From a virus: a stretch of 17,075 nt of DNA. The translations under genes and the position numbers were made by a program. Position 1 is the stretch's first letter. Each line of letters opens with the position of its first letter. The notes beneath the pieces were generated by a model. The model was not told where the DNA came from and searched no databases. It saw nothing but the letters and a program-made list of their open reading frames with translations. The stretch lies in UHGV virus genome UHGV-2091278; one strand, given 5' to 3'. Of this stretch, positions 1,231-16,414 are shown one piece after another.

Positions 1231-1253
1231 GGAAGAGCAGGAGAGCAAAACAG

Positions 1254-1721
1254 ATGCTTAAGACAAACAGTCTGCGAGAGTCCATGCTTCATGGGTGTCG
1301 GTGGTGCCAGGCTAATCCCGAGAAATTCACCATTTTCGTGGAGAGCGGCAACATTGAAACGACCGGAGAAGCGCCCTCGTTTGTTTACCGCTATCAGATG
1401 GTGATGTTTGTCATGGATTACGCCGGAGAGCTGGACGACCTCACGCTGCCGCTGCTGGCGTGGTTATCCGAAAATCAGCCACAGTTGTTGCTCAATCCGG
1501 AGCGTAATCAGGACATCAAATTTTCTGCCGTTATCAATGACGATGACAGCGCCGATCTCCTGTTTACGCTCCCCCTGCGGGAACGCGTTCGCATCACGCG
1601 CAACAGTCAGGGCACACCGCAGGCAGAACACCTGCCGGAGCCAAAACCCCGTCTGCCCTCTTCCGAAGGCGACTGGTCGCATGTATTCCAGGATGTGACG
1701 TGGGGTGAAAGCGATGGATAA
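1254..1721 (+). CDS. R: P2 gpR-like tail completion protein
   Basis: 155 aa; N-terminus MLKTNSLR... and ...LPLLAWLSENQP... match my memory of P2 gpR (MLKPDSLR..., VPVLAWLRENQP). SD GGAGAG 8 nt upstream of ATG. Confidence 0.8.
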   Translation: MLKTNSLRESMLHGCRWCQANPEKFTIFVESGNIETTGEAPSFVYRYQMVMFVMDYAGELDDLTLPLLAWLSENQPQLLLNPERNQDIKFSAVINDDDSADLLFTLPLRERVRITRNSQGTPQAEHLPEPKPRLPSSEGDWSHVFQDVTWGESDG

Positions 1722-2349
1722 GGCATTCACCAGCGTGGATGAAACCTTTGAGGCTATCCGCGACAGCCTGAATCAGCAGGCCATCAATAACATCGCCAGA
1801 AAGCTGGCACAGGATTTACGTCGCGCCCAGCAGGCACGTATCCGATCACAAAAAGCGCCGGACGGGACCGAATGGACACCACGCAGACGCCGCGTAACCC
1901 GGATACAGGAGCGCATTCGCTTTATCTGGAATAACGAAGCACGCACGCTGAAAAACTGGCATCACGACACGGGGAAATACGGGCGAACCATTACCGGGTG
2001 GGATGAGGATAAAAACAATATCCGCACGTTTTACCGGGATGACATCGACCGTTTTCTGGAAATACGCACCCGGCGCATCAACCAGGACAGCACAAAGCGC
2101 GTCCCCATGTTCGTAAAACTGCGCACCGCCCGCTACCTGAAAGCCCGTGCAGATGCCTCCGGTGTGACGGTGGGTTACAGCGGCGTGGCCGCACGTATTG
2201 CACGCGTTCATCAGTTCGGTGAGCGCGATCAGGTTGCGCCGGGCATTTTCACCGATTACCCGGTACGTGAGCTGTTGGGTATCAGCCAGGCAGATGAGCG
2301 CCTGATTTATAACACGGTGCTGGGCCGGATTGCGGAGGCTGTACGGTGA
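1714..2349 (+). CDS. S: P2 gpS-like tail completion / virion morphogenesis protein
   Basis: Open frame 1705-2349 immediately after R and before V; ATG at 1714 overlaps the R stop (ATGGATAA). GTG at 1705 is an alternative start. Size and position fit the phage virion morphogenesis (gpS) family. Confidence 0.6.
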   Translation: MDKAFTSVDETFEAIRDSLNQQAINNIARKLAQDLRRAQQARIRSQKAPDGTEWTPRRRRVTRIQERIRFIWNNEARTLKNWHHDTGKYGRTITGWDEDKNNIRTFYRDDIDRFLEIRTRRINQDSTKRVPMFVKLRTARYLKARADASGVTVGYSGVAARIARVHQFGERDQVAPGIFTDYPVRELLGISQADERLIYNTVLGRIAEAVR

Positions 2350-2927
2350 GCGCAGAACTCATGCGACTGCTGAGCAACATCATCCGCACCGGGATCATCT
2401 CTGAAGTTGATGAGAAGTCCTGGCGCGTGCGCGTTCGCAGCGGCGAACTGGAAACAGGCTGGTTGCGCTGGAACACCACGCGCGCGGGAGCCTTCAATGT
2501 GTGGCTGCCGCCATCACCAGGCGAACAGGTGGTAATTGCCTGCATTGGCGGCAACCCGGAAACCGCCATGATAATTGGCAGCCTGTGGAGTGATGCCAGT
2601 CCGGCCCCCGGCAAAAGCCTGAAAGAAATCGTGGTCAGCGCGCCGGATGGCGCGGTGTTCCGCTACGACGCAGACGCTGGCGCACTGAGCGCCAGCGGCA
2701 TGAAAACAGCCACCCTGCAGGCATCCGTCAGCGTGACACTGGATACGCCCGTCGTGGAATGCACAAACCTTCTGAGAACAGCGACGCTTGACGTCACAAA
2801 AGGGGGAAAGATGAGCGGCAATATCACGCACAGCGGCGGCAACTTCACCTCAAACGGCATCACAGTGCATACGCATAAACACGGTGGTGTGAAAGGCGGC
2901 AGCGATTCGACAGGAGGCCCGCAGTGA
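2346..2927 (+). CDS. V: P2 gpV-like baseplate central spike protein
   Basis: 193 aa; ...IRTGII...E, WLRW, HTHKHGG... pattern as in P2 gpV; GTG start overlaps S stop (GTGA). ATG at 2361 is an alternative start. Confidence 0.85.
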   Translation: MSAELMRLLSNIIRTGIISEVDEKSWRVRVRSGELETGWLRWNTTRAGAFNVWLPPSPGEQVVIACIGGNPETAMIIGSLWSDASPAPGKSLKEIVVSAPDGAVFRYDADAGALSASGMKTATLQASVSVTLDTPVVECTNLLRTATLDVTKGGKMSGNITHSGGNFTSNGITVHTHKHGGVKGGSDSTGGPQ

Positions 2928-3274
2928 CAACCCGCTACACAGGAATGAATCCGGACGGGACGGGAAACCTGAATGATATGGAGCACCTGAAACAGTCAGC
3001 CAGGGACATCCTGACCACCCCGCTGGCCAGCCGGGTTATGCGACGGGAATATGGCAGCCTTGTACCTGATTTGATTGACGAACCCATGAATAACACCACG
3101 CGTCTGCAATGCATGAGTGCTGCCGTGATTGCGCTGACACGATGGGAACCCCGCATTGCCCTGGACGCCATCGACGTTGTCTGGAAAGCGGGAGGCCGCG
3201 CCGGGGTGACGCTGTCGGGCACTGTCATGCAGACCATGCAGAATGTTGAGTTAACCATCACGCTGAGGGAGTAA
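2924..3274 (+). CDS. W: P2 gpW-like baseplate wedge protein (gp25/lysozyme-like fold family)
   Basis: 116 aa; MTTRYTGMN...RVMRREYGS...WEPR closely parallels P2 gpW (MTARYLGMN...RVMRRDYGS...WEPR). GTG start overlaps V stop, SD AGGAGG upstream. Confidence 0.85.
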   Translation: MTTRYTGMNPDGTGNLNDMEHLKQSARDILTTPLASRVMRREYGSLVPDLIDEPMNNTTRLQCMSAAVIALTRWEPRIALDAIDVVWKAGGRAGVTLSGTVMQTMQNVELTITLRE

Positions 3275-3277
3275 ATC

Positions 3278-4174
3278 ATGCCTGCTGTTGACCTTTCCCA
3301 GTTACCGGAACCCGCCATCATCGCGAAGCCTGATTTTGAGGCAATTCTGGCTGACACAAAGGCCATGATGATTGCGTCCTATCCTGCCGAACAGCGTGAA
3401 GCCGTCTCCGCCGCGCTGGAGCTGGAATCGGAACCCCTGAACGTTATCGCCCAGACAACAGCGTTTCGTGAAATGCTGTTACGCCAGCGGGTCAATGAGG
3501 GTGCACGCGCCTGCATGTTAAGCCACAGCGCCGGGACAGACCTGGACAACCTCGCGGGCAATATGAACACAAAGCGCCTGGTTATCACTCCGGCAACGGA
3601 TACCACCGACGCGGTGATGGAAAGCGACACATCGCTGAGACTGCGGGCGCAACGGGCGTATGACGGTCTGAGTGTTGCTGGCCCGTCAGGCGCATACGAG
3701 TATTTTGCACGCAGCGCCAGCGGTCTGGTACGCGACGCGCGAGCCATCAGCCCGTCTCCGGCCAACGTGACGGTTTCCATCCTGTCCACTGAAGGCGACG
3801 GCACAGCAACGGAGGCGTTGCTTAATACCGTTCGCGCCGTTCTGAATGCAGAGGATACCCGCCCGGTGGCCGACCGCCTGACCGTACAGAGCGCCAGAAT
3901 CGTGACATGGCGGCTGAATGCAAAACTGTACTTTTACCCCGGCCCGGAATCCGAACCTATTCTGGCCGCGGCTGAATCGTCGTTCAGGAAGTGGCTGGCT
4001 GAGCAGGGGCTTATCGGTCAGGACGTGGCGTTGTCCGCCATTGCTGCCGCACTGCATGTGCACGGTGTGCAACGCGTGGAGATAATCGAACCCACACAGA
4101 ATATGGCCATCAGCGACATACAGGCGGCGCGCTGTGAGTCATTCACCATCAGCGAAGGTGGACGCAATGAGTAA
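3278..4174 (+). CDS. J: P2 gpJ-like baseplate protein
   Basis: 298 aa; MP..DL.QLP...SEPL...RPVADR.TVQSA...LYFYPGPESEPI... is collinear with P2 gpJ; SD GAGGGA 7 nt upstream. Confidence 0.85.
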   Translation: MPAVDLSQLPEPAIIAKPDFEAILADTKAMMIASYPAEQREAVSAALELESEPLNVIAQTTAFREMLLRQRVNEGARACMLSHSAGTDLDNLAGNMNTKRLVITPATDTTDAVMESDTSLRLRAQRAYDGLSVAGPSGAYEYFARSASGLVRDARAISPSPANVTVSILSTEGDGTATEALLNTVRAVLNAEDTRPVADRLTVQSARIVTWRLNAKLYFYPGPESEPILAAAESSFRKWLAEQGLIGQDVALSAIAAALHVHGVQRVEIIEPTQNMAISDIQAARCESFTISEGGRNE

Positions 4175-4697
4175 TTCGTTGTTACCACCATCAGCCAGCA
4201 ATTTCATGCGTTGTGCCGAAGCCGTCGGAACACGCATTACAGACATTCCGGTAGACCTCAACACGCTGTGGTCGCCGGACACCTGCCCGGTGCATCTGCT
4301 GCCTTATCTCGCCTGGGCGTTTTCCGTTGACCGCTGGGATCGCAACTGGCCGGAAGAGACAAAGCGACAGGTGATTCGTGATGCATGGCTGATACACCGA
4401 CACAAAGGGACCATCAGCGCACTGCGCAGGGCCATTGAGCCGCTGGGATACCTCATTCGCGTGTCTGAGTGGTGGGAGTTCGGCGGAGAACCGGGAACAT
4501 TTACCGTTGAAGTCGGCACGCTGGACAGTGGCGTGACGGAGGAAATGTATCTGGAAATGGAGCGGTTGATTGCTGATGCCCGCCCGGTCAGCCGCCACAT
4601 GACAGGGCTGAATATCATTCAGGAGATCCCGGGGGATATTTTCGCGGCGGCAGCAACTTACGACGGTGAAGTCATTACCATTTATCCGGACGATTAA
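4167..4697 (+). CDS. I: P2 gpI-like baseplate protein
   Basis: Track ORF starts at 4134, but homology to P2 gpI begins at MSNSLLPP (ATG 4167, overlapping the J stop). ...[25 protein letters not shown]...HKGTI...[14 protein letters not shown]... matches gpI. Confidence 0.85.
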
Positions 4698-4699
4698 GC

Positions 4700-6847
4700 A
4701 TGAGTACCACAACACGAAAATTTAAAACCATTATCACTGATACTGGTGCCAAAAAATTAGCTCAGGCTGCCGCGCCAGATGGTAATCCTGTCCGCCTGAC
4801 TCATATGGCCGTGGGCGACGGTGGCGGCACGTTGCCCACACCAGACAGTAAGCAGATCCGTCTGGTGCATGAGGTGTGGCGACATACTGTTAATCGCGTC
4901 ATCCTGGACGCAACACATCAGAACCGCATTATTGCGGAGCTGGTTATTCCTCCTGAAACGGGCGGATTCTGGATCCGGGAAATTGGTGTATTTGATGAGC
5001 ACGGCGATTTGATCGCGGTGGGCAATACTGCCGAAAGTTACAAACCAACCGTTGCCGAAGGATCCGGACGTGCACAAACATTTCGCACCATTCTGACCGT
5101 ATCCAGCACTGCCACCGTGGCGCTTACCGTGGATAACACCATGGTAATGGCCACAGTGGATTACGTGAATGACAAACTGAAAGAACATGAACAGTCACGA
5201 CGTCACCCGGACGCCTCGCTGACCGCAAAAGGCTTTGTTCAACTCAGTAGCGACACTAACAGCGTGTCTGAAACGCAGGCTGCAACGCCGAAAGCAGTAA
5301 AGGCCGCGTATGATCTTGCTAACGGGAAATATACTGCGCAGGATGCCACCACAGCGCGAAAAGGCCTTGTCCAGCTCAGTAGCGCCACCAACAGCGATTC
5401 TGAAACGCTGGCGGCAACACCAATGGCGGTAAAGGCAGCATATGACCTTGCTAACGGGAAATATACTGCGCAGGATGCCACCACAGCGCGGAAAGGCCTT
5501 GTCCAGCTCAGTAGCGCCACCAACAGCACGTCTGAAGCACTGGCCGCAACACCGAAAGCGGTAAAGACAGCATATGACCTTGCTAACGGGAAATATACCG
5601 CTCAGGACGCTACGACAGCACAAAAAGGGATTGTCCAGCTAAGCAGCGCGACTAACAGCACATCTGAAACGCTTGCCGCGACACCGAAAGCAGTGAAAGC
5701 AGCTAATGACAATGCGAATGGTCGGGTACCTTCTGCCCGTAAGGTGAATGGTAAGGCGCTTTCAGCGGATATTACACTGACGCCGAAAGATATTGGTACG
5801 CTTAACTCAACAACTATGTCATTTAGCGGTGGTGCTGGTTGGTTCAAATTAGCAACGGTAACCATGCCGCAGGCGAGTTCTGTTGTTTCAATTACGTTGA
5901 TTGGTGGGGCTGGATATAACGTCGGTTCACCTCAACAGGCAGGTATATCTGAACTTGTTTTGCGTGCAGGTAATGGTAATCCGAAGGGGATTACTGGTGC
6001 TTTATGGCAGCGCACATCGACAGGGTTTACAAATTTTGCCTGGGTCAATACATCTGGTGATACTTACGATATTTACGTTGCAATCGGAAATTATGCGACT
6101 GGTGTAAATATTCAATGGGATTATACCAGTAATGCCAGCGTAACGATTCATACGTCACCAGCATATTCTGCTAATAAGCCGGAAGGGTTAACGGACGGTA
6201 CAGTTTATTCACTCTATACGCCATCAGAGCAGTTTTATCCGCCTGGCGCACCAATCCCGTGGCCATCGGATACCGTTCCGTCTGGTTATGCCCTGATGCA
6301 GGGGCAGACTTTTGACAAATCTGCCTACCCGAAACTTGCAGTCGCTTATCCGTCAGGCGTGATCCCTGATATGCGTGGCTGGACGATTAAGGGCAAGCCC
6401 GCCAGTGGTCGTGCCGTATTGTCTCAGGAACAGGACGGCATTAAATCGCACACCCACAGCGCCAGTGCATCCAGTACGGATTTGGGGACGAAAACCACAT
6501 CGTCGTTTGATTACGGTACTAAAACGACCAGTTCATTTGATTACGGCACAAAAACCACAAATAGCGCAGGAGCTCATTCACACAATATACCTGTTGGTCA
6601 CACTGGCGCGGGGAATGGTGTATCAGCCGGTTATAACGCTGCGTTAGGTACTGGTACCACGTCGAGCGCAGGAGGGCATGCTCACAATGTATATATCGGT
6701 GCCCATAACCACACTATCGGCATTGGTGCTCATGCCCATTCTGTCATTATTGGTCCCCACGGACACACCATCACCGTTAATGCTACGGGGAACGCAGAAA
6801 ACACCGTAAAAAACATCGCATTTAACTATATTGTGAGGCTTGCATAA
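4700..6847 (+). CDS. H: P2 gpH-like tail fibre protein, conserved N-terminal attachment domain, variable repeat-rich shaft and His-rich C-terminal tip
   Basis: 715 aa; N-terminus [23 protein letters not shown]... is typical of P2/Mu/P1-type fibres; internal 44-aa repeats; C-terminal HxH motifs and ...[11 protein letters not shown] terminus. Confidence 0.85.
5225..5720. repeat. Four tandem near-identical 132-bp (44-codon) repeats inside the tail fibre gene
   Basis: Repeat unit KG(F/L/I)[35 protein letters not shown](R/Q); the GGC/GGG phase points 5231, 5363, 5495 and 5627 are exactly 132 nt apart. Confidence 0.85.
6485..6565. repeat. Short 30-bp tandem repeat ([10 protein letters not shown] x ~3) in the fibre distal region
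   Basis: [10 protein letters not shown] repeated consecutively in the translation; nucleotide period 30. Confidence 0.6.
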
Positions 6848-7425
6848 TGACATTCAGAATGAGTGAACAATCACGGACCATAAAAATTTATAATCTACTG
6901 ACCGGAACCAATGAGTTTATTGGTGAAGGTGATGCATACATTCCACCTCATACAGGTCTGCCTGCAAACAGTACCGATATTGCACCACCAGATATTCCGG
7001 CTGGCTTCGTGGCTGTTTTCAACAGTGATGAGGCATCGTGGCATCTCGTTGAAGACCATCGGGGTAAAACTGTTTATGACGTGGCATCAGGGGACGCGTT
7101 ATTTATTTCTGAACTCGGTCCGTTACCGGAAAATGTTACCTGGTTGTCGCCGGATGGAGAGTGTCAGAAGTGGAACGGCACATCCTGGGTGAAAGATGCA
7201 GAAGCAGAAAAACTGTTTCGGGTAAGGGAGGCAGAAGAAACAAAAAACAGCCTGATGCAGGTAGCCAGTGAGCATATTGCGCCACTTCAGGATGCCGTAG
7301 ATTTGGATATTGCGACGGAGGAAGAGGCATCGTTACTGGCTGCATGGAAGACATATCGGGTATTGTTGAATCGTGTTGATACAACAGTAGCAGCGGATGT
7401 TGAGTGGCCAGTCGCCCCACAATAA
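6847..7425 (+). CDS. G: Tail fibre assembly chaperone (P2 gpG / Tfa-like)
   Basis: 192 aa; ATG overlaps H stop (TAATG); protein resembles Tfa/gpG chaperones; sits directly after the fibre gene. Confidence 0.8.
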
Positions 7426-7468: not shown

Positions 7469-8074
7469 CTATTTATACAATACAACACCACTCTTTTTAG
7501 TTATATATGTGCAGTTTGATGGTATATCTTTATTTATAAAAGACATTGCACCTATTTTTACATTATCCCCAATTTTACGTGATAATCCAATGATGCAACA
7601 ATTAGCTCCGATATCAACGTTACTACCAATTTTCACTCTTGAACCAGGCATGTCACCATCTATCTGCCCAATGGTAGTATTCTGTCGTAATACCAGATTT
7701 TCACCCGCATCAACAGCAAAATGAACAACAATTCCAGCATGATGGGGAATTGTTAACCCTTTTCCAATATTTGCTCCTAATCCTATTTCACAACCAAATT
7801 TGTTAATTATTTTACTGTTTAACTTTTTGGCTGCTTTCTTATGTAATTTATTACCATTAATATACATTTCGTTAGCCAACCGCCACCAGAAAAGGAAATT
7901 CCGGTTACGCTGCTTTTTCTCTCTTAAAAGCCTCCAGATATCCATACGTTTCCGCCGAATTACTTCATGTTTCCAGAAGTTTTTTAAATTAGTAGAGTTC
8001 CCAAATAAAACAAAGTGAATTGCCATTAAGTAGGACAGCACGAAAATCTCCTTAATTATTATTTCAGACCACAC
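7469..8074 (-). CDS. Hexapeptide-repeat (left-handed beta-helix) acyltransferase, serine O-acetyltransferase (CysE/WcaB-like) family; A+T-rich cargo (moron) gene
   Basis: 201 aa; C-terminal ...IGLGANIGKGLTIPHHAGIVV...IGQIDGDMPGSRVKIGSNVDIGANCCIIG...IGDNVKIGAMSFI... is the classic [LIV]G hexapeptide pattern and the DG..G.R.P.IG motif of serine acetyltransferases. Visibly lower GC than flanks. Start uncertain (GTG 8074, ATG 8026 or ATG 7945). Confidence 0.65.
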   Translation of the reverse strand: MWSEIIIKEIFVLSYLMAIHFVLFGNSTNLKNFWKHEVIRRKRMDIWRLLREKKQRNRNFLFWWRLANEMYINGNKLHKKAAKKLNSKIINKFGCEIGLGANIGKGLTIPHHAGIVVHFAVDAGENLVLRQNTTIGQIDGDMPGSRVKIGSNVDIGANCCIIGLSRKIGDNVKIGAMSFINKDIPSNCTYITKKSGVVLYK

Positions 8075-8197: not shown

Positions 8198-8692
8198 TCA
8201 GAGCAGCCCCTTAACTGAGCTGGCCGCGCTGTTAAGGGATGATGTCACCTTATCTTTGAAGCCGGACAACATATCGCTGAACGATGAGGATTGCAGGCGC
8301 TCCCGCAAATCCTCATCACAGCGTTCAAGAGTCAGTGAAAATTCTATCTTTTTCGCCTTACCGTAGCGATCAAACTCGGAGCGGGTCGTATTCGTTTCAG
8401 TCAGTACATACATGCCGTAAATCTGCCCGACGCCATCAATCAGAGGCCAGGGGCATCCTGTATATGCCTGCGTGGTCAACAACGACAGCGACACTTCGCC
8501 ACCTGTAATCTCAGGATAAAGAACACCCGAAAGAACGATGCGATCATCACCTGCACCGATATACTGCCAGCTTGCCGAACGGTTAACGCGTTCATTTTTC
8601 ACATGTCGCCAGCTTTTGTTTTGCTGTAACTGCTGATGCGGCAACGTGCGCAACTCAAAAACAAACATGCCGTAGATCATCATCATGGCCAT
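8198..8692 (-). CDS. U: P2 gpU-like tail protein
   Basis: 164 aa; ...LSGVLYPEITGGEVSLSLL...WPLIDG.G.IYGMYV... parallels P2 gpU; SD GAGGAG overlaps the T stop. Confidence 0.85.
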   Translation of the reverse strand: MAMMMIYGMFVFELRTLPHQQLQQNKSWRHVKNERVNRSASWQYIGAGDDRIVLSGVLYPEITGGEVSLSLLTTQAYTGCPWPLIDGVGQIYGMYVLTETNTTRSEFDRYGKAKKIEFSLTLERCDEDLRERLQSSSFSDMLSGFKDKVTSSLNSAASSVKGLL

Positions 8693-8698
8693 GACTCC

Positions 8699-11515
8699 TC
8701 AATCTTTATCGTAAAAACTGCCACGTCCGGCACGGTCGCGTCGTTCCAATTCTGCCCTGACCATTTCACCGACCAGTTTCGCCAGTTCGCGGGGATTCTG
8801 CGTAACAACGTTATGCAGATGAACATGAATTTCACCGCCAAATCCGGAGGCAACAGGCTCCCGGTTACGGGAAGTTACAGGAACTGATGCCACTGGAGAT
8901 CGTATGGCCTCCGCCACCGGGCGGGAGCTGGCCGCAACAACAGGGACCAGCGCCGGAGGCAGCGGAGCCGGGACCACGGGTGTGATATTAATTGCGGGGG
9001 CAGGCTTACTGACCTGCGCAATCTTCCGCTCCTGCCACTCCCCACGAACAGCAAGTGCGCGGGGCAGGTTTTTAAAGACAATATCGCCGGGGCCAATGCG
9101 TTTTTTCGTCTCCTCAACCAGCTTACCTGTGTTATCAGCAATTTTGCTGAGTCTGCGCAGCGTACCGGTATTGCTGTCTGTGAGCGGTTTATTGTCTTTG
9201 GAGTTATCACCTCCGGTGCCATTGCCATTTTCCACAGGCTTCGGCGGATTGATTTTCGCCAGGTCCCCCTGAAGTAAGGCAACCTTGTCCTGAAGAATGG
9301 CCGCACGCTGTGCGTCTTCGATTTTCTTGCGCGCCCTTTCCGCTTCATCCGGAAGGACGCCAAGTTTTTCAAGTATCCACGCCAGCGTATCCAGTAGCAT
9401 TTTTGCAGGTGTCAGAACAAGTTGTAACGCACCGCCAAGAACGTTACCGAATATCTCGCCAGCACTGGTACATTTATCCAGCGTTTCCTTGCTGGACTCC
9501 ATCGGTGACAACAGCGATTTAAACCAGTTAAACACCTGGCTGATCCCGCTTCCGATTGCGTCAAAAACAGGACCAAACCGTTCAAAGGTTTCGCGCAACG
9601 GGGTCAGCCTTTCCATAATCCCGCTGAACACCCCGGCAAAAAATGCCCTGATGGGATCCCAGTATTTCCAGATGAGAACGGCAGCTCCGGCAAGCGCAGC
9701 CACGATAAGACCGACCGGACTGAACAACGCCCCGATAGCGCCCCCCAGTAACGAAACGGAACCCGTCACCATTCCCCATAGTGCTGGCAGGAGTCTGACA
9801 GCATTCATTGAACCGGTCAGGAGGGAAAAGCCAAGACGCAGTTTTGCCAGCGGGCCAGCAAGCACACCAATAGCCAGCGACAACGAGCCAACCGTTGCAG
9901 TCATTGCCAGCAACGCACCGCCTGCTATCAGTAGCTGGCGCGTCAGTACCGGATGAGCCTGCGCCAGCGAGGTGATTTTTTCAAGCACCCGCGTGAGCCA
10001 CTGCGTGACAGAACGCAGCGGACCGTCAACCAGATCACTGATGCGAATACGAAGACCTTCCCATGCGCTGTCGAGATTTTTCAGGTCCCCATCAAGATTA
10101 TCGGCCATTACTTTTGCAACGCGATCGGCCTCTCCCCTTGCCCCCTGCAATTCTCTGGTCAGTTTTTGCAGCTCTCCTGAACCAGCCGCCGCAACAAGCG
10201 TCTGCAAACCAACGAACGCCTCTTCTCCGGCGATGTCCTTGAAGAAGGAGACCTGGTCCACCTGTCCGTATTTTTGTGTCGCCTTATAGAGATCAAGCAG
10301 CACATCCTCCATCGGGCGCATTTTGCCTCTGGCGTCAGCAACTGACACCCCCAGCTCTTTCAGCGCATCAGCCGCAGCTTTTGGCGGTGATGCAAGGCGG
10401 GACAGACTTGCGCGCATGGCCGTACCAGCATCGCTTCCACGAAGACCATTATTGGCAAGCATCCCGGCCATGGCTGCCGCTTCTTCAAGACTGATACCAA
10501 GTTTTGCGGCAACCGGACCGGTATACTTCATGGTTTCGCCCAGCGCGCGTAAATCAGTATTGGTCCGGGTGAATGCCGCTGTCAGCGTATCGCCAACCCG
10601 GTCCATTTGATCGGCTGTCAGGTTGAACTGTGTGAGGATATTGGAGCCTATATCCGCCGTCTCGCCGAGTTCGACGCCACCTGCCAGCGCCATATTAAGA
10701 ACACCGGGCAATGCGGCCTGAATGGCCTGCGGAGTAAAACCAGCCATTGCCAGAAAGCTCTGCCCACTGGCGGCATCACTCGCAGTAAACTGTGTTTCAG
10801 AACCAAGTTTTAACGCCTGCTCACGCAGCGCCTTAAACTGCGGGCTGTTTTTGTCGATTCGCGTCAGTGCCTGAACGCGGGACATCTCTTTGCCGAACCC
10901 GATCGCAGGCTGCAAAAAACGTCCGGCAGCATAGCCGCCAGCCGCTGCAGCACCAATTGCCAGCGCACCACCTGTTTTCAGTTTTCCCACGGTTTCCTGC
11001 GCGCGCGAATACCGCTCACGCGCCCGCGTTACACGCGCAAGCGCCTGCCGTTCGCGTTCAAGTTGGTTGTTGTACTGTTCGGTGCGTCTGATGGCCTGCT
11101 GGATGGTGTTATCGCTGCCTGTCAGGGAAATGCCGTGGCGTTTCAGCTCTCCGCCAAGTTCCCGCATTTTCTGAATTTCCCGTGTGCGCGATTCATTCAG
11201 GCGTTCAAGCCGGGTGCTTAACTGCTGCATCAGCTTTTGTTGTTTTTCGCTGAGAACTGTACCCGTGCGTTGTAACTGATTAAGTGCGTTAAGCTGGCGT
11301 CGTGCTTTCACGATGCCAGCATCCGCTTTACTGACAGCGTCGCGGGCGCGCTCAAATGAACGCGCCTGACGCTCGAGATTTTTGATCGCCCCCTGCGTTC
11401 GCTGAATGGAGTCACCAAACTGCCCCATCAGGCGGCGGGCGTTTTCGGCAGGCCGGGTCAGCCTGTCAACGGCGCTGAAAGCGACCCGGATGTCAAGAGT
11501 CTTCATTATCTGCAT
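8699..11515 (-). CDS. T: Tail tape measure protein (P2 gpT-like)
   Basis: Very long ORF (up to 947 aa from GTG 11542); coiled-coil-rich N-terminal region, Gly/Ala-rich hydrophobic middle segments, position between E/E' and U. Start most likely ATG 11515 or 11506, overlapping the E' stop. Confidence 0.85.
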   Translation of the reverse strand: MQIMKTLDIRVAFSAVDRLTRPAENARRLMGQFGDSIQRTQGAIKNLERQARSFERARDAVSKADAGIVKARRQLNALNQLQRTGTVLSEKQQKLMQQLSTRLERLNESRTREIQKMRELGGELKRHGISLTGSDNTIQQAIRRTEQYNNQLERERQALARVTRARERYSRAQETVGKLKTGGALAIGAAAAGGYAAGRFLQPAIGFGKEMSRVQALTRIDKNSPQFKALREQALKLGSETQFTASDAASGQSFLAMAGFTPQAIQAALPGVLNMALAGGVELGETADIGSNILTQFNLTADQMDRVGDTLTAAFTRTNTDLRALGETMKYTGPVAAKLGISLEEAAAMAGMLANNGLRGSDAGTAMRASLSRLASPPKAAADALKELGVSVADARGKMRPMEDVLLDLYKATQKYGQVDQVSFFKDIAGEEAFVGLQTLVAAAGSGELQKLTRELQGARGEADRVAKVMADNLDGDLKNLDSAWEGLRIRISDLVDGPLRSVTQWLTRVLEKITSLAQAHPVLTRQLLIAGGALLAMTATVGSLSLAIGVLAGPLAKLRLGFSLLTGSMNAVRLLPALWGMVTGSVSLLGGAIGALFSPVGLIVAALAGAAVLIWKYWDPIRAFFAGVFSGIMERLTPLRETFERFGPVFDAIGSGISQVFNWFKSLLSPMESSKETLDKCTSAGEIFGNVLGGALQLVLTPAKMLLDTLAWILEKLGVLPDEAERARKKIEDAQRAAILQDKVALLQGDLAKINPPKPVENGNGTGGDNSKDNKPLTDSNTGTLRRLSKIADNTGKLVEETKKRIGPGDIVFKNLPRALAVRGEWQERKIAQVSKPAPAINITPVVPAPLPPALVPVVAASSRPVAEAIRSPVASVPVTSRNREPVASGFGGEIHVHLHNVVTQNPRELAKLVGEMVRAELERRDRAGRGSFYDKD

Positions 11516-11761
11516 TCCCGCTGCGAAGTGCCGCCCGCTCACGCCAGCTAACCACTTCGCCGGGCGTCATCATGAAGATTTCGGCGGGCGACCAGTTAAA
11601 AATGGCGGCAATATCCGCCACCAGATCTTCGATGTGCTCAAAGCACACCAGGGTGATTACGCTGCCGTCTCCTGCACGCTCTTCGCGCCAGAGTCTGGCT
11701 CGCTCATAAAATTTACAGCCACAGCGCACAACTGAATAAAATCGCGTGACGACATTTTTTT
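11493..11761 (-). CDS. E': E' segment: -1 frame extension producing the E+E' fusion tail assembly chaperone
   Basis: The -1 frame opens exactly at the A7 run (plus-strand T7, 11755-11761) inside E and stays open to TGA at 11493-11495; the arrangement mirrors P2 E/E+E' and lambda G/GT. Confidence 0.7.
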
Positions 11762-12031
11762 AATCATCACTTCATCCAGTCGTGGCGAGGTCACGCGAGG
11801 CAACAGCGTGAACATGGTATCCGCTTTCAGATTCAGCACATCAGACAGCGACAGACCACGCAGGGATCCCGCCTGCTCAATAGCCCCGGTGATCTCCACA
11901 TATGTGATTTTTTCGGCACCACGCTCAATTGGCCGGGAAAGTTTTACACCACGTTCGACAGCCATATCCTCACCTGCCGTCACATCATCCGCTACGGTGT
12001 TATTCCGGGTTTCAGTATCGATATCTTTCAT
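11657..12031 (-). CDS. E: P2 gpE-like tail assembly chaperone (zero-frame product)
   Basis: 124 aa; located between tube and tape measure genes; SD AGGAG 7 nt upstream of ATG; contains the frameshift site. Confidence 0.8.
   Translation of the reverse strand: MKDIDTETRNNTVADDVTAGEDMAVERGVKLSRPIERGAEKITYVEITGAIEQAGSLRGLSLSDVLNLKADTMFTLLPRVTSPRLDEVMIKKMSSRDFIQLCAVAVNFMSEPDSGAKSVQETAA
11755..11761 (-). other. Putative programmed -1 ribosomal frameshift slippery site (A AAA AAA on the coding strand)
   Basis: A7 homopolymer at E codons ~90-92 (..VMIKKM..); the -1 frame has stop codons immediately upstream and opens at this run. Confidence 0.55.
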
Positions 12032-12086
12032 CAGTTGTCTCCTTTTCAGTCAGAGGCGACGCACTGCGCCGCCTGCATATTACTTA

Positions 12087-12599
12087 TCAGCCAAGCCCAA
12101 GCGCGGAACGAATGCGGTCAGGCACAATGTCCTTGCCGTCCTTCCGGTAGATGTGGTTCAACAGGTCGATTTCCCACAGCGGGCGATCGTTAACGCTAAG
12201 CTTGTAGTAGGTGTTTTTGACAGCGTAAGTGTGTGATGTGGCTTCGCCCTGTTTGGCCTCCCCCATATCAATTTCCGTCACACGCCCGCGCATCTCGATT
12301 TCATACAGATCGCTTTCTGCATCGGTGTAATATTCACCCGCAAAACGCAGCAGCGTGCCGTCAATCGTGCCGCCATACTTAAGGAACAGTGCACGAACAG
12401 CTCCCCCCATGACAAAGCTCGCATCAAGCGCGGAGTCGTCCAGACCGAGATCAATACTTACTGCCCCCATCATGCCACCACCACGATAGCTGTCGGTTTT
12501 GCGCGTCAGTTTGGGCGGCGTGACGGATGTCACTTTACCCACTTCGTTTTCACCATCCACAAACAGCGTAAAAAAGCGAAGATGTTTTGGTACAGCCAT
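12087..12599 (-). CDS. FII: P2 gpFII-like tail tube protein
   Basis: 170 aa; ...TPPKLTRKTDSYRGGGM.G...DLGLDD... matches P2 FII (LPKLTRKLENYRGAGM...DLGLDD); start ATG overlaps the FI stop (TGATG). Confidence 0.9.
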   Translation of the reverse strand: MAVPKHLRFFTLFVDGENEVGKVTSVTPPKLTRKTDSYRGGGMMGAVSIDLGLDDSALDASFVMGGAVRALFLKYGGTIDGTLLRFAGEYYTDAESDLYEIEMRGRVTEIDMGEAKQGEATSHTYAVKNTYYKLSVNDRPLWEIDLLNHIYRKDGKDIVPDRIRSALGLG

Positions 12600-13783
12600 C
12601 AGGCACCTCCCAGCACCGCAAATGCGGGACCAAAGAATTCATCAGTAAACGTCTGGTAAAGCTCCATGTCTTCCAGCGGGGGAACGGGCGTATATTTGTA
12701 GCGAATACGCACACGCCCCTGACGTAAATCCGTGGTGCCGTTATCCACCACGTCATACCAGCACTCCGCGCCAATCAGTTTCCCGGCAGTAACCAGCGAA
12801 TCCAGTTTTGCCCTGATGGCGCTGATAACATCCTTCACGTTCGCAGGCGTCAGTGGACTGTCGATGGTTTCAAACTGCGCTTCCGCAATTGAATCAGCCA
12901 GCACCTGTGCGGTTCGGGTATACACCTCAAAGATGTAGGCGTTCGTTTCCGGTGTGCGGTTGCCCCAGAAGCGGAACCCGTTGCGACGAATAATGGTCGT
13001 GATTTCTTTGTTGTTGAGGCTGTTGGCATCACTGTCTTCGGCCTGTAATGACCAGAACACATGCCTCGACATCCCCAGCACATTTTTAACCGGAACGTTG
13101 GACAGTGATTTGTGCCACCCCTGCTCATGGTCAATGTACGCACGAAGGCCGCACGCATAGGCAGGCGCGGGGAACGTTTCGTTTTTGCCACTTTTCGGGT
13201 TGTAGGCGATGAAGTCCGGCCATAAGAGCATCACCTCACGTTCGTTGAATTTCTGGCGGTAGGTAATCGCCTCAGCCATCGTGTTACAGCCGTGACATGA
13301 GGCATACACAAACGCGCGCAGTTTACCTGCAATCACGCACAGGGATTTTGTTACAGCCTCCGTGTCCAGCTCCGGCGCAGCCAGAATACGCGGACGGTAT
13401 CCGATGCTTTCATCCTGCTCTGCAACAAGCAGCGCATACATCCCCGTATAGCTGCCGTCATCCTCAGAACCACCGATAACCAGTTGATCCTGCGTCTTTC
13501 CGTCTTCTTCTTTGTGTTCAGCCACGCGAACGACGATCACCTTTGTGCTCACCTGGTCTGCGATGGCCTTAAGCGCACGATAAAGCGTCCCCGTTGTTCC
13601 GCATTTTCCCAGCACGTCATTGACGCGGGTCAGCAGTGTGGGCTTGTTCAGCGGGAACAGCTTCGCGTCCGCATCATCCGCCGTTGCCACGATACCGATA
13701 ACGCTGGAATCAACATCGTTAATCGCTGTTACCAGGTCGGTATTTTCCGTAACACGGGCACCATGAAAACGAGTTTCACTCAT
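12599..13783 (-). CDS. FI: P2 gpFI-like contractile tail sheath protein
   Basis: 394 aa; ...FPLNKP...KLRAF.Y....C.T..E...YRQ.F..RE.M..WPDF...EQGWHK.LSNV...FRFWGNRT...YTRTAQV..D...YTPVPPLE... is diagnostic of the P2 sheath family. Confidence 0.9.
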   Translation of the reverse strand: MSETRFHGARVTENTDLVTAINDVDSSVIGIVATADDADAKLFPLNKPTLLTRVNDVLGKCGTTGTLYRALKAIADQVSTKVIVVRVAEHKEEDGKTQDQLVIGGSEDDGSYTGMYALLVAEQDESIGYRPRILAAPELDTEAVTKSLCVIAGKLRAFVYASCHGCNTMAEAITYRQKFNEREVMLLWPDFIAYNPKSGKNETFPAPAYACGLRAYIDHEQGWHKSLSNVPVKNVLGMSRHVFWSLQAEDSDANSLNNKEITTIIRRNGFRFWGNRTPETNAYIFEVYTRTAQVLADSIAEAQFETIDSPLTPANVKDVISAIRAKLDSLVTAGKLIGAECWYDVVDNGTTDLRQGRVRIRYKYTPVPPLEDMELYQTFTDEFFGPAFAVLGGA

Positions 13784-13940
13784 AGCTTCAGCCCCTTGTA
13801 TCCGTTAAATGATTCGGCAACAATCATCACCCACCACGCGCGTAATCTCACCCCTGCGCTATTCTCCCGCCACGGCGACAACAAAAAGCAGTACCCCCCT
13901 CCGCACGCACATGCGACCATGCCGTACAGGGAGGGAACAG
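13784..13940. promoter_or_regulatory. Divergent intergenic region expected to hold the late promoters for the FI operon (-) and D (+)
   Basis: 157-bp non-coding gap between divergently oriented start codons; no specific Ogr-box could be confidently recognised by eye. Confidence 0.3.
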
Positions 13941-15050
13941 ATGACCGACACCACCATGCAATTGCTCAGTCAGGGCACAGACCCCGTGAAAATGCCGGAT
14001 TTTGATATTCTCGCCGAGGGTAAAACGCTGTCCGGCGTGGCAGAACGCCTGATGAGCCTGTCACTGACCGACAACCGGGGATTTGAGGCGGACCAGCTCA
14101 CCATCACGCTGGATGATGCCGATGGCCAGTTGCAGCTACCGCCACGGGGCGCGCGCCTGACGGTTCTCATTGGCTGGAAAGGGGAACCGCTGACAGAAAA
14201 AGGCACTTACATTGTTGATGAAATCGCTCACGAAGGACCGCCGGACAGGCTGACTGTTTCAGCCAGAAGCGCAGATTTTCGGGATGAATTTAATGTTAAA
14301 CGTGAGGCGTCCTGGCATGATGTGACCGTTGAACGTGTGGTATCCGCCATCGCTCATCGGTACGGCCTGAAACCGCAAATCAGCGAAATGCTGATGGATA
14401 TCGAAATCGACCACGCCGACCAGACTGAAGAAAGCGACATGTCCTTCCTTACGCGCATGGCGGAAATGCTGGGCGCAATCACCACGGTAAAAAGCGGTAA
14501 TCTGTTATTCATCATGCCCGGCGGTGGCGTGAACGCACAGGGCCAGCCGTTGCCATCGTTCGCCATCACACGCAGCAGCGGCGATCGCCATCAGTTCCGC
14601 ATTGCTGACCGCGAGGCGTATACGGGGGTACGCGCTTACTGGCTTGATCTTAATTACGGGAAAAAGAAAAAAGTCAGCGTGAAACGCCGCAAACCGCCAA
14701 AACCCAAAAAGGAGAAAAGCAGCAGCCGTGAAGGTGATTATATGGAAGGCGCGGAAGGCAATGTGTTTGTGTTACGCAAGACTTATCAGAACGAGCAGGC
14801 AGCAAGACGCGCAGCGGCGGCAAAGTGGCAGCAGCTACAACGCGGAGCCGCATCATTCTCCATCACACTGGCACGCGGACGCGCAGAACTCTACCCCGAA
14901 ATGCATGGCACGGTAACAGGATTTAAAAGCGAGATTGATAATCAGGACTGGATTATTGCAAAATCCGAGCACACCATTGATAACAGCGGCTTTACCACGC
15001 AGCTTGAGCTTGAAGCAAAAATTCCGGAATGGATAGCAGAAACAGAATGA
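13941..15050 (+). CDS. D: P2 gpD-like tail protein
   Basis: Track ORF starts at 13809, but homology to P2 gpD begins at MTDTTMQLLSQGTDPV...; ATG 13941 has GGGAGGGAA SD upstream. ...DNRGF.ADQLT.TLDDADG...YIVDEIAH.G.PD.LTV.ARSADFR..., the basic KK-rich stretch and ...SGFTT.LELE... are all gpD-like. Confidence 0.85.
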   Translation: MTDTTMQLLSQGTDPVKMPDFDILAEGKTLSGVAERLMSLSLTDNRGFEADQLTITLDDADGQLQLPPRGARLTVLIGWKGEPLTEKGTYIVDEIAHEGPPDRLTVSARSADFRDEFNVKREASWHDVTVERVVSAIAHRYGLKPQISEMLMDIEIDHADQTEESDMSFLTRMAEMLGAITTVKSGNLLFIMPGGGVNAQGQPLPSFAITRSSGDRHQFRIADREAYTGVRAYWLDLNYGKKKKVSVKRRKPPKPKKEKSSSREGDYMEGAEGNVFVLRKTYQNEQAARRAAAAKWQQLQRGAASFSITLARGRAELYPEMHGTVTGFKSEIDNQDWIIAKSEHTIDNSGFTTQLELEAKIPEWIAETE

Positions 15051-15106
15051 GTAAATTAGATGCATTAGCTCAGTCATGAGTTTACTGATTACGTACGGCA
15101 CAGAAG

Positions 15107-15141
15107 CAAACCTGATAGTTTGCTCTGTGCCAGAAACGGAC
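15107..15141. terminator. Long imperfect inverted repeat between convergent D and the DUF2971-like gene
   Basis: GGCACAGAAGCAAA ... TTTGCTCTGTGCC (about 13 bp stem, one bulge, 8-nt loop); no adjacent U-tract, so function uncertain. Confidence 0.25.
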
Positions 15142-15172
15142 ATTGCCGACATCATAATCGACACAAATTACA

Positions 15173-16036
15173 TTAATCACCTATGTGATTACGTTCTATA
15201 TATCTTACAATCTTCTCTAAAGATTCAACCCCCCACCTCTGCATAGCATGCGGGGATTCTGTATATTCATAATCTTCTATGGTGAGATCCCATGTACTTT
15301 TCTTGAATTCACACTGATATAATCGCACAGTCTTGTTTAAAACCAACCCTTCTAACACACTGCTTTTCTTAATGATTTTGTCAATGTCTTTATTGTTAAT
15401 CCCAATGTAGATAGCTGTTACCGAACTTAAATCAGTTATCTTGTCAATTAAAATATTTTCTTGCTTTTGTAATAGCCCCACTCGCTTTATTATTCTAACT
15501 TCTTCTTCATATTTCCAATGCAATGATTTAGTAAGCAATAATTTACTAATTACATCAGCGCTATAAATGTTTTCTTGACTGATTTTTAGTTTGCTTTTTA
15601 TTCGACTCTCTAAATAATTAATGTCACCTTTCTGTGCCGTAATTAGGCATTTTTCTTCATCATCAAACCCTGCCCTTTCTGTGTCAATTGCTACAACAAA
15701 CCCCTGATGTTTATCAGCATAATGTGACCACATCAGTACATTGAGAGGATTTTTAGAAAGGCATAAGCAGGCAACATTTTGATTGATCTCCCCCCTCATA
15801 GCTAATGGTTCAAGCGATTCACCATCTAATGAAAGTTCATAGCCATAGCTTTCAAAAGGATCATTAAACTCACTATATGGAGTGAATTTTATAGAGATGT
15901 AACCATCTTTAAAAAATCGTTCCAATGATGTCTTATCTATATATTTATACAGAATCATAATATATTCAGAATTAATTATAGGTGTTATCAGTATACAGTA
16001 CTTCAACAAGTAGATGTAAAGATCCCATTTAAACAT
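15173..16036 (-). CDS. DUF2971-family-like protein of unknown function; A+T-rich cargo gene inserted between D and ogr
   Basis: 287 aa; ...ILYKYIDKTSLERFF.DGYI..KFTPYSEFNDPFES... and ...LMWSHYADKHQGFVVAID... resemble the conserved N-terminal motifs I associate with DUF2971. Strong SD GAGGAGGA directly before ATG 16036; visibly low GC. Confidence 0.6.
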   Translation of the reverse strand: MFKWDLYIYLLKYCILITPIINSEYIMILYKYIDKTSLERFFKDGYISIKFTPYSEFNDPFESYGYELSLDGESLEPLAMRGEINQNVACLCLSKNPLNVLMWSHYADKHQGFVVAIDTERAGFDDEEKCLITAQKGDINYLESRIKSKLKISQENIYSADVISKLLLTKSLHWKYEEEVRIIKRVGLLQKQENILIDKITDLSSVTAIYIGINNKDIDKIIKKSSVLEGLVLNKTVRLYQCEFKKSTWDLTIEDYEYTESPHAMQRWGVESLEKIVRYIERNHIGD

Positions 16037-16153
16037 TCCTCCTCAATACGCGGATTAAACAAATTAAAGCATCTTACTCAAAATGGACCATCAGTTGGAT
16101 TTAGAGCCAACACAACCTAGAATAGCGGCAGCACCACGTTAAGGGAGGTCGCT

Positions 16154-16414
16154 ATGTTCCGTTGTCCGCTTTGTGGCGCATCTGCCCGTATCCGCACCAG
16201 TCGTCCGGAAAATGATTCAAACACCGTGCGACAAAAGTATTACCAGTGCAACAACCTGGAATGCGGCGTATGCTTCTCAACACTGGAAGCTTTCCATAAA
16301 TTCACATCGAAGCACGCCTCCGGCGTTCACTCTTCAGAAGGTATCCCGTGGCATGAGCTGCCAGCTTCGCACAGGGGAAACAATCAGATGAGTTTGCCTT
16401 TACCTCAGAATTAA
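16154..16414 (+). CDS. ogr: Ogr/Delta-family zinc-finger late transcription activator
   Basis: MFRCPLCGASARIRTSR...QKYYQCNNLECGVCFSTLE... matches P2 Ogr (MFHCPLCQHAAHARTSR...ERYHQCQNVNCSATF) with a Cys-x2-Cys...Cys-x4-Cys arrangement; SD AAGGGAGG upstream. Confidence 0.8.
   Translation: MFRCPLCGASARIRTSRPENDSNTVRQKYYQCNNLECGVCFSTLEAFHKFTSKHASGVHSSEGIPWHELPASHRGNNQMSLPLPQN

Follow-up and report, generated by a model that had tools for sequence, protein, structure and literature searches.

The closest described counterpart of the genes considered here is the gpE/gpE+E' pair of phage P2 (FETUD operon), in which E' is reportedly made as a frameshift extension, with an efficiency of about 10%, and is said to be essential. 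The P2 shift site is annotated as T_TTT_TTG, in agreement with a first-pass annotation of the present locus, and leaves 6 codons to the E stop. The P2 gene lies between FII and T, and the end of E' overlaps the start of T. The same layout is found in the stretch of 17,075 nucleotides analysed here (virus genome UHGV-2091278, hereafter the window), which is a P88-like prophage (Xuanwuvirus, Peduoviridae): E stands between FII, the tube gene, and T, which encodes the tape measure, the genes being adjacent and on one strand (Table 1). The lambda gpG/gpGT pair is likewise comparable in its shared N terminus, its position just upstream of the tape measure and a minor product made by a -1 slip (PMC5009743), although it has no sequence similarity to the window genes, uses another heptamer (G_GGA_AAG) and serves a siphovirus rather than a myovirus tail.

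Table 1. Features of the E/E'/T region in window coordinates.
Feature	Position	Strand	Basis or remark
Gene E, zero-frame tail assembly chaperone, 124 aa	11657..12031	-	ORF list and sequence
Shine-Dalgarno sequence AAGGAG of E	12044-12039	-	7 nt upstream of E
E' part, -1 frame after the predicted slip, 71 codons and TGA	11493..11708	-	PF06528; substitutions
E+E' fusion reading unit, predicted 179 aa (E residues 1-108 and 71 aa)	11493..12031	-	
Tape measure gene T	8699..11506	-	Pfam PhageMin_Tail 1.6e-56; PGAP annotation of a 100%-identical locus
Tail tube gene FII	12087..12599	-	Pfam Phage_tube 2.1e-45; directly upstream of E
Proposed -1 slippery heptamer A_AAU_UUU	11714-11708	-	Zero frame GUA AAU UUU AUG; E codons 107-108
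A7 run, slip-site candidate of the first-pass annotation	11755..11761	-	E codons 91-92 and first base of codon 93

The reading frames themselves are as the first-pass annotation described them. Nine stop codons interrupt the -1 frame of E from 12014 to 11760, and the last of them (TAA 11762-11760) overlaps the A7 run; the frame is then open into the tape measure start for 88 codons (given earlier as about 85), to TGA 11495-11493. That the last stop falls exactly at the run merely reflects the T that precedes the A's. E ends at TAA 11659-11657, and the end of E' overlaps the T start (ATG 11506) by 14 nt.

Both parts of the predicted fusion are homologous to P2 proteins. E gives a weak Pfam match to Phage_TAC_7 (residues 29-109, E=0.003; 18 bits, the cut-off being 25), which stops at residue 109, while the -1 ORF carries PF06528, Phage_P2_GpE (45 bits, the cut-off being 23; 7.4e-12, fusion residues 138-173); NCBIfam returned no match for either E or the fusion. 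When the fusion is rebuilt with an NF-Y junction, it aligns collinearly with P2 E+E' in BLASTP (2e-29), the E part with P2 gpE and the junction VNF-Y opposite VGF-F of P2, and tblastn linked the query to P2-like phages. The phage records were searched by tblastn in place of a search of genome contigs with the E protein, which had returned 2 loci only, both P88-type. Gene position, the GpE domain in the -1 ORF and the alignment to P2 thus bear out the assignment to the chaperone frameshifts of the P2 E/E+E' and lambda G/GT kind.

Where the -1 frame is entered is a separate matter. Within the open -1 stretch, the sole canonical in-register X_XXY_YYZ heptamer is A_AAU_UUU, which lies 47 bases downstream of the A7 run and had been overlooked. 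A DNA-pattern scan of IMG/VR gave 119 related loci, of which 117 were usable and 60 of these P88-type; GTAAATTTT is invariant in all 117, while the lineages differ at 7 of 10 synonymous positions nearby. Across 16 Peduoviridae loci a slippery heptamer always stands where the conserved E helix (..V.GF-L) ends, and it reads T_TTT_TTG, T_TTT_TTT, T_TTT_TTC or C_CCT_TTC, A_AAT_TTT_TTG in P88 and Chuche, and A_AAT_TTT in the window. The window heptamer is positionally homologous to those of the 15 other loci, including U_UUU_UUG of P2. The proposal that the slippery sequence differs from that of P2 thus stands for A_AAU_UUU against U_UUU_UUG but not for an A7, and the 33 codons by which E was thought to run past the site become 16, within the range of 6-22 seen in other Peduoviridae. 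A U_UUU tetramer within E (GAU UUU, codons 96-97) was discarded as a candidate, since P88 does not conserve it (GAC TTT) and since it precedes the -1-frame TGA of P88.

Substitutions between the window and P88, scored in the zero and -1 frames, place the change of coding constraint at the same point. Between the A7 run and the heptamer there are 7 synonymous changes and 2 non-synonymous ones when the zero frame is read, but 0 and 10 when the -1 frame is read; beyond the heptamer, as far as the E stop, the counts become 2 and 8 in the zero frame and 6 and 4 in the -1 frame. Constraint passes from the zero to the -1 frame at the heptamer, 16 codons past the A7 run. We consider it likely, with a probability of roughly 0.8, that the ribosome slips at A_AAU_UUU and gives E+E' by a P2-type -1 frameshift.

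We infer slippage at this heptamer, its efficiency and the functions of the proteins according to the following scheme. E (124 aa) would be the tape-measure chaperone of this P88-like myovirus prophage. A minority of the ribosomes translating E would pause with tRNA-Asn at AAU (codon 107, P site) and tRNA-Phe at UUU (codon 108, A site), both tRNAs would shift by -1 on A_AAU_UUU and pair anew with AAA and UUU, and the -1 frame would then be read from UAU GAG CGA as far as its TGA, the T at 11708 being read twice. The product would be a 179-aa E+E' protein in which the whole E chaperone domain is joined to the C-terminal GpE domain, with a predicted junction ...AVAVNF-YERAR... and an E' part running YERARLW...NADNEDS to the stop. 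If P2 E+E' and lambda gpGT are a guide, the tape measure may be coated by many copies of E and few of E+E', with the E' domain recruiting the tube protein. The predicted tryptic junction peptide would be DFIQLCAVAVNFYER for entry at the heptamer and NVVTR or FYSVVR for entry at the A7 run.

Published reporter data place H_HHU_UUY among the best shift motifs in E. coli, with 11.4% for AAAUUUU next to a strong stimulator against 0.77% for UUUUUUG, while A_AAU_UUU lacking a stimulator is near background (0.070% against 0.055%) (Sharma et al. 2014, PMC4066793). No convincing hairpin or pseudoknot was found 5-9 nt downstream of A_AAU_UUU, RNAalifold over five lineages giving only -4.8 kcal/mol, and no SD-like sequence was found 6-17 nt upstream. 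The stem-loop or pseudoknot that the first-pass annotation proposed to look for did not emerge at either candidate site, single-sequence folds over 40-60 nt being no better than those of shuffled sequences (for A7, z = +0.55, +1.30 and -0.33 to +0.83). Anti-SD pairing upstream of the two sites is likewise weak and wrongly spaced (-2.6 and -6.8 kcal/mol, the latter being the best duplex at A7, with a spacing of 2 nt).

The A7 run was the site first proposed for the shift, by a -1 slip of tRNA-Lys on AAA AAA, which would give a 179-aa fusion ...VMIKK-NVVTRFYSVVRCGCKFYER... without the last E helix. It is a real feature of these genomes: the worry that it might be a sequencing error is removed by its presence in a 100%-identical complete genome and in 118 of the 119 IMG/VR relatives, and the 81 nt around it match 513 E. 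coli records exactly. The -1 frame is open from 11759 in window-type genomes, and A-rich heptamers are shifty in E. coli if in register, with A_AAA_AAA reaching 0.4% by itself and 25% when the IS3 pseudoknot is present in published data. The register, however, is not the A AAA AAA that had been given, since the zero frame reads AUU AAA AAA AUG and the in-register heptamer is U_AAA_AAA (C_AAA_AAA in P88); this leaves effectively an A_AAA tetramer, for which published values are 0.13%, or 0.26% with a strong pseudoknot. The A_AAA_AAG sites of dnaX and the IS3 family, which resemble such a model in placing an A-rich run within coding sequence, combine the X_XXY_YYZ register with an SD-like element and a hairpin or pseudoknot, whereas the window A7 is off by one and no stimulators were found there; the aligned position of P2, moreover, is not slippery. 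The openness of the -1 ORF after A7 is not conserved among relatives, as each of the 60 P88-type loci has a -1-frame TGA three codons past the run, and so do three window-type loci (L051, L077 and L081), in which E, E' and T are intact. The 10 non-synonymous and 0 synonymous -1-frame changes before the heptamer also speak against translation of that stretch in the -1 frame, and a slip at A7 would remove a segment homologous to P2 gpE residues 70-84, E residues 93-108 corresponding by homology to the last helix of P2 gpE. Codon usage by itself would lead one to expect the two AAA Lys codons to be kept, and a single A7 in 17 kb is below the chance expectation of 3.6 +/- 2.6 (at least one occurs in 183 of 200 shuffles). 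Off register, followed by a TGA in relatives and lying 16 codons ahead of both the constraint switch and an invariant heptamer, the A7 run is, in our judgement, a bystander, and a ribosomal slip there very unlikely to be the route to E'. In window-type genomes, where the -1 frame is open there too, the run may make a minor contribution to the shift.

Slippage of RNA polymerase on the same A7/T7 tract, adding one A so that some mRNAs would encode E(1-92) followed by the -1 frame, has the merit that one added nucleotide gives the -1 frame whatever the register, and an A6 indel in one relative (L100) shows that the tract is unstable. Efficient transcriptional slippage in E. coli, on the other hand, usually needs runs of 8-9 or more, for which an A7 is borderline. 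The TGA that most relatives have behind the run, the lack of -1-frame constraint and the loss of the conserved E helix count against this reading as well, and it leaves the invariant in-register heptamer downstream without an explanation. In its favour, E. coli genes are depleted of AAAAAAA in each of the three frames, a deficit put down in part to transcriptional slippage or indels by the authors reporting it (PMC4066793). We hold this the least likely of the explanations weighed here. E' could instead be made alone by re-initiation, with no frameshift, as the 51-aa 'GpE family phage tail protein' of PGAP (GTG 11648 to 11493), which appears as a separate CDS in PGAP and in several phage records and starts 9 nt past the E stop. 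That GTG has no SD sequence, however, and conservation in the -1 frame (6 synonymous changes, 4 non-synonymous) sets in 60 nt before it, at the heptamer, the -1 frame being open and alignable to P2 E+E' from the junction on; P2 E' is, moreover, reported to arise as a frameshift extension. Independent synthesis seems very improbable to us, slightly more so than a ribosomal slip at A7. A second, upstream entry into E' at A7, whether ribosomal or transcriptional, is conceivable in the window-type lineage because the change of TTG to ATG has removed the P2-type U_UUU_UUG and the TGA after A7 is absent. We think such an entry very improbable, to the same degree as the A7 slip on its own; if real, it could compensate for a weakened heptamer or yield a second E+E' isoform without the last E helix, and the lineage would offer a naturally occurring example of a frameshift site on the move.

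In the three window-type loci with a TGA after A7, A_AAU_UUU is the only site available. That the heptamer would suffice alone is suggested by these loci, which represent at least two independent events, and by Shae_phiSM, a phage whose E/E' overlap region is identical to that of the window and which, to judge from its name, would be the published PhiSM, reported as a temperate phage that forms plaques.

Of 5426 complete E. coli genomes, 1374 carry the E-region DNA; the window-type lineage is represented by about 600 complete genomes, and the 740 E. coli records that match at 80-90% identity are probably of the P88 type. Among the Xuanwuvirus phage records and PGAP annotations of prophages that were examined, not one joins E to E', and the PRFect paper and the P88 genome paper make no mention of the heptamer motif or of an E/E' frameshift. 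About one complete E. coli genome in four carries the prophage, so the predicted 179-aa E+E' is missing from the corresponding proteomes. The practical value of the locus lies in this annotation, and the view of tail-chaperone frameshifting is unchanged.

P88 itself offers the most direct comparison. It shares about 85% nucleotide identity, gene order, the GTA AAT TTT codons and the upstream A7 with the window, and differs in the TGA three codons past A7, which the window does not have, and in the site, where A_AAU_UUU_UUG comprises two overlapping heptamers including that of P2, while the window has TTG changed to ATG (Leu to Met). Two abundant, close lineages whose sites differ only as A_AAU_UUU_UUG and A_AAU_UUU_A amount to a small natural experiment, which suggests that A_AAU_UUU, not the P2-type U_UUU_UUG, carries the shift in Xuanwuvirus.

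Set against P2, the window has the predicted -1 shift near the end of E, on a canonical in-register heptamer at the homologous codon (VGF-F in P2, VNF-Y in the window), and the PF06528 domain in E'. The heptamer is A_AAU_UUU instead of U_UUU_UUG and is followed by 16 rather than 6 codons to the E stop; E measures 124 aa against 91 and the predicted fusion 179 against 142, with a linker 10 residues longer in the window. A strong SD-like AAGGUGGU just 5' of the slip site is found in P2 only, and the FI-U block of the window is inverted relative to the baseplate genes. With these differences, the window pair is most likely an ordinary, so far unannotated member of the known P2-type class with a minor variant of its heptamer.

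The E/E' frameshift, joining the zero-frame tail assembly chaperone gene E to its -1-frame part E', very probably exists. E starts at ATG 12031, behind AAGGAG, and stops at TAA 11659-11657, and its predicted zero-frame product is 124 aa. From 12014 to 11760 the -1 frame is closed by nine stops, TAA 11762-11760 being the final one, and it then stays open for 88 codons up to TGA 11495-11493, where it overlaps the start of the tape measure gene T at 11506, much as the first-pass annotation had described. This -1 ORF matches Pfam PF06528 (Phage P2 GpE) at 45 bits against a cut-off of 23, and the reconstructed fusion aligns with annotated P2 E+E' over 153 residues (BLASTP 2e-29), bearing out the proposed membership of the conserved chaperone frameshift known from P2 (E/E+E') and lambda (G/GT). 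With the fusion as tblastn query, two-piece matches in different frames were found in 326 phage records, a few of which (P2, Smp131, Menos) carry a joined CDS. E and E' are joined in no Xuanwuvirus record examined nor by PGAP, which starts a separate 'GpE family phage tail protein' of 51 aa at GTG 11648.

To place the slip, we compared 16 Peduoviridae loci by their E sequence, their -1 window and every X_XXY_YYZ heptamer in register. In 16/16 a heptamer lies where a conserved E helix ends (...D[LF][IV].L....V.[GN]F|L): T_TTT_TTG in P2, SEN5, Vimunumvirus, Menos, Fels-2, Dagavirus, Tigrvirus, Novemvirus, YenM_31.17, P88 and Chuche, T_TTT_TTT in the Zymomonas element and Smp131, T_TTT_TTC in Firavirus and C_CCT_TTC in Reipivirus. 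At the homologous codon our sequence reads GTA AAT TTT ATG, giving an in-register A_AAT_TTT 47 nt (16 codons) 3' of the A7 run, whereas P88 and Chuche read GTA AAT TTT TTG, in which A_AAU_UUU overlaps the P2 heptamer U_UUU_UUG. By our own estimates, any in-register canonical heptamer would arise by chance in the 34-codon overlap with a probability of about 0.13, and one at the single homologous codon with a far lower probability. Scanning IMG/VR for an exact pattern yielded 119 related loci, and of the 117 that were usable 117 carry GTAAATTTT[A/T]TGAGC. The slip is best placed at A_AAU_UUU. Slippage there would produce an E+E' protein of 179 aa, made up of E residues 1-108 followed by YERARLWREERAGDGSVITLVCFEHIEDLVADIAAIFNWSPAEIFMMTPGEVVSWRERAALRSGNADNEDS, with T 11708 read twice.

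The first-pass annotation had placed the slip at the A7 run, the only one in the window, against 3.6 expected by chance per 17 kb. The run is indeed on the minus strand, but its zero frame is AUU AAA AAA AUG and hence U_AAA_AAA (C_AAA_AAA in P88) rather than A AAA AAA; in its register the run amounts to an A_AAA tetramer. A -1 stop does coincide with the run; the coincidence was over-read, as that TAA consists of the preceding T and two of the A's, and the 16 further open codons upstream of the heptamer have roughly even odds by chance ((61/64)^16 = 0.46, our calculation). P88 and Chuche keep the run but carry a -1-frame TGA three codons later (TCC CGT GAC), so that a slip at their A7 cannot reach E'. 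This TGA follows the run in all 60 IMG/VR loci of the TTG type, while about 52 of the ATG type, that of the window, are open from the run onwards. Three loci of the ATG type have the TGA too, L051, whose background is that of P88, and L077 and L081, by a synonymous CGC to CGT change; in all three the genes are intact, with E of 122-124 aa, E' of 71 codons and T of 935-938 aa. A further locus, L100 (IMGVR_UViG_2534681774_000015), has A6 at the homologous position; this shifts the N-terminal part of E out of frame and breaks the gene, and T at this locus is shortened to 491 aa. The prophage may be in decay, or the missing A may be a sequencing error in the homopolymer; what the locus shows is that the run is prone to indels, not that it has a function.

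Substitutions between the window and P88 (synonymous/non-synonymous) number 7/2 in the zero frame and 0/10, stop included, in the -1 frame from the A7 run to the heptamer, 2/8 and 6/4 from the heptamer to the E stop, and 0/8 and 5/3 beyond it; as read from these counts, the frame of coding constraint switches at the heptamer, not at the run. E residues 93-108 (MSSRDFIQLCAVAVNF) align to P2 gpE ELPDLVALAGKVVGF, which is kept in P2 E+E', and the Pfam TAC_7 match extends as far as residue 109. The suggested search for a stem-loop or pseudoknot revealed no stimulatory element beside the run. Register, the relatives' TGA, constraint, helix homology and this lack of a stimulator leave the A7 run, with 33 codons of E after it, unsupported as the slippery site, although it may make a minor ribosomal or transcriptional contribution in window-type genomes. 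The earlier view that the site differs from that of P2 holds for A_AAU_UUU, from which 16 codons remain to the E stop, not about 33.

Of the E. coli motifs in Sharma et al. 2014 (PMC4066793), H_HHU_UUY belongs to the best 15. Without a stimulator, with IS911 stimulators and with the IS3 pseudoknot, AAAUUUU gave 0.070, 0.355 and 11.4% frameshifting and UUUUUUG 0.118, 0.247 and 0.765%; A_AAA gave 0.125% without a stimulator and 0.256% with the pseudoknot (PMC4066793 Table S3). Given these AAAUUUU and UUUUUUG figures, the TTG to ATG change of the window lineage need not impair the site, and A_AAU_UUU may already be the main site in P88-type phages. Unstimulated A_AAU_UUU is near background in reporter assays (PMC4066793). 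At 5-9 nt downstream of the heptamer no hairpin or pseudoknot was convincing, and neither a conserved consensus structure nor an SD-like sequence at stimulatory distance was found. P2, Fels-2 (L016), Dagavirus (L017) and relatives, unlike the window and Xuanwuvirus, carry a strong SD-like sequence, AAGGUGGU or GAGGUGGU, that ends 0-3 nt short of U_UUU_UUG and pairs with the 16S tail at -13 to -14 kcal/mol (2168-2178 in P2, L005). A 7-bp hairpin, GGUGUGC UUUGA GCACAUC, starts 8 nt past the E stop codon and contains the GTG taken by PGAP as E' start. Window-type and P88-type sequences share it without change, and in an RNAalifold of 5 sequences several of its pairs show covariation in genera further removed. 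Lying about 57 nt from the heptamer, it is too distant for a classical frameshift stimulator.

Features of the tail region and its surroundings
Feature	Coordinates	Strand	Evidence
Baseplate and fibre genes (R, V, W, J, I, H, G-like)		plus	
Acetyltransferase gene	7469-8074	minus	
U	8198-8692	minus	clear Pfam match
Tape measure T	8699-11506	minus	clear Pfam match
CRISPR spacer match in E'	11538-11571		100% identity
Hairpin	11631-11649	minus	
E	11657-12031	minus	weak Pfam match, below the cut-off
A_AAU_UUU heptamer	11714-11708	minus	
A7 run	11755-11761	minus	
Tube FII	12087-12599	minus	clear Pfam match
Sheath FI	12599-13783	minus	clear Pfam match
gpD (Phage_GPD)	13809-15050	plus	
DUF2971 protein gene	15173-16036	minus	
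ogr	16154-16414	plus	

Over the 700 bases around E/E', identity is 98% with Citrobacter phage Shae_phiSM and Xuanwuvirus P884B11 and about 85% with Escherichia phage P88 (Peduoviridae, genus Xuanwuvirus). The 561-base E region is matched at 100% by a prophage adjoining ihfA in E. coli strain A1, and of 5426 complete E. coli genomes 1374 contain it. Within E', 34 nt match a CRISPR spacer region of E. coli strain GmM066 (NZ_CM183652), in a type I-E array adjoining cas1e-cas2e; at least one E. coli therefore has CRISPR immunity against this prophage sequence. The hexapeptide-repeat acetyltransferase gene between gpU and a tail-fibre assembly gene, a 'serine acetyltransferase' according to PGAP in the identical prophage, resembles a moron, a cargo or lysogenic-conversion gene. 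A second probable cargo gene is the one for the DUF2971 protein, an insertion that separates gpD from ogr and runs on the other strand.

The Shae_phiSM overlap region is identical to the window's. PhiSM of C. rodentium, which we equate with Shae_phiSM from the name, is reported to be a fully functional, plaque-forming temperate phage whose virions have long non-contractile tails (Siphoviridae; PMC6456863). The Shae_phiSM record (L001, OR565851) encodes a P2-type sheath, tube and baseplate, its sheath gene being mislabelled 'late control gene D protein'. The two records may concern separate phages; otherwise, either the morphology or the annotation calls for another look.

In P2, FI-FII-E-T-U-D-ogr form a single co-directional operon, whereas here the FI-FII-E-T-U block (8198-13783) is opposite in strand to the baseplate and fibre genes, gpD and ogr (49-7425 and 13809-16414). 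P2 does use the T-rich site that the first-pass annotation gave for it, GG T_TTT_TTG, annotated as its shift site, with six codons of E remaining past it. The feature is real but already known in kind, a frameshift of the P2 E/E+E' and lambda G/GT type, and the case described here, with its site best placed at A_AAU_UUU (11714-11708), is an unannotated member of that kind, a minor heptamer variant at the P2-homologous position.
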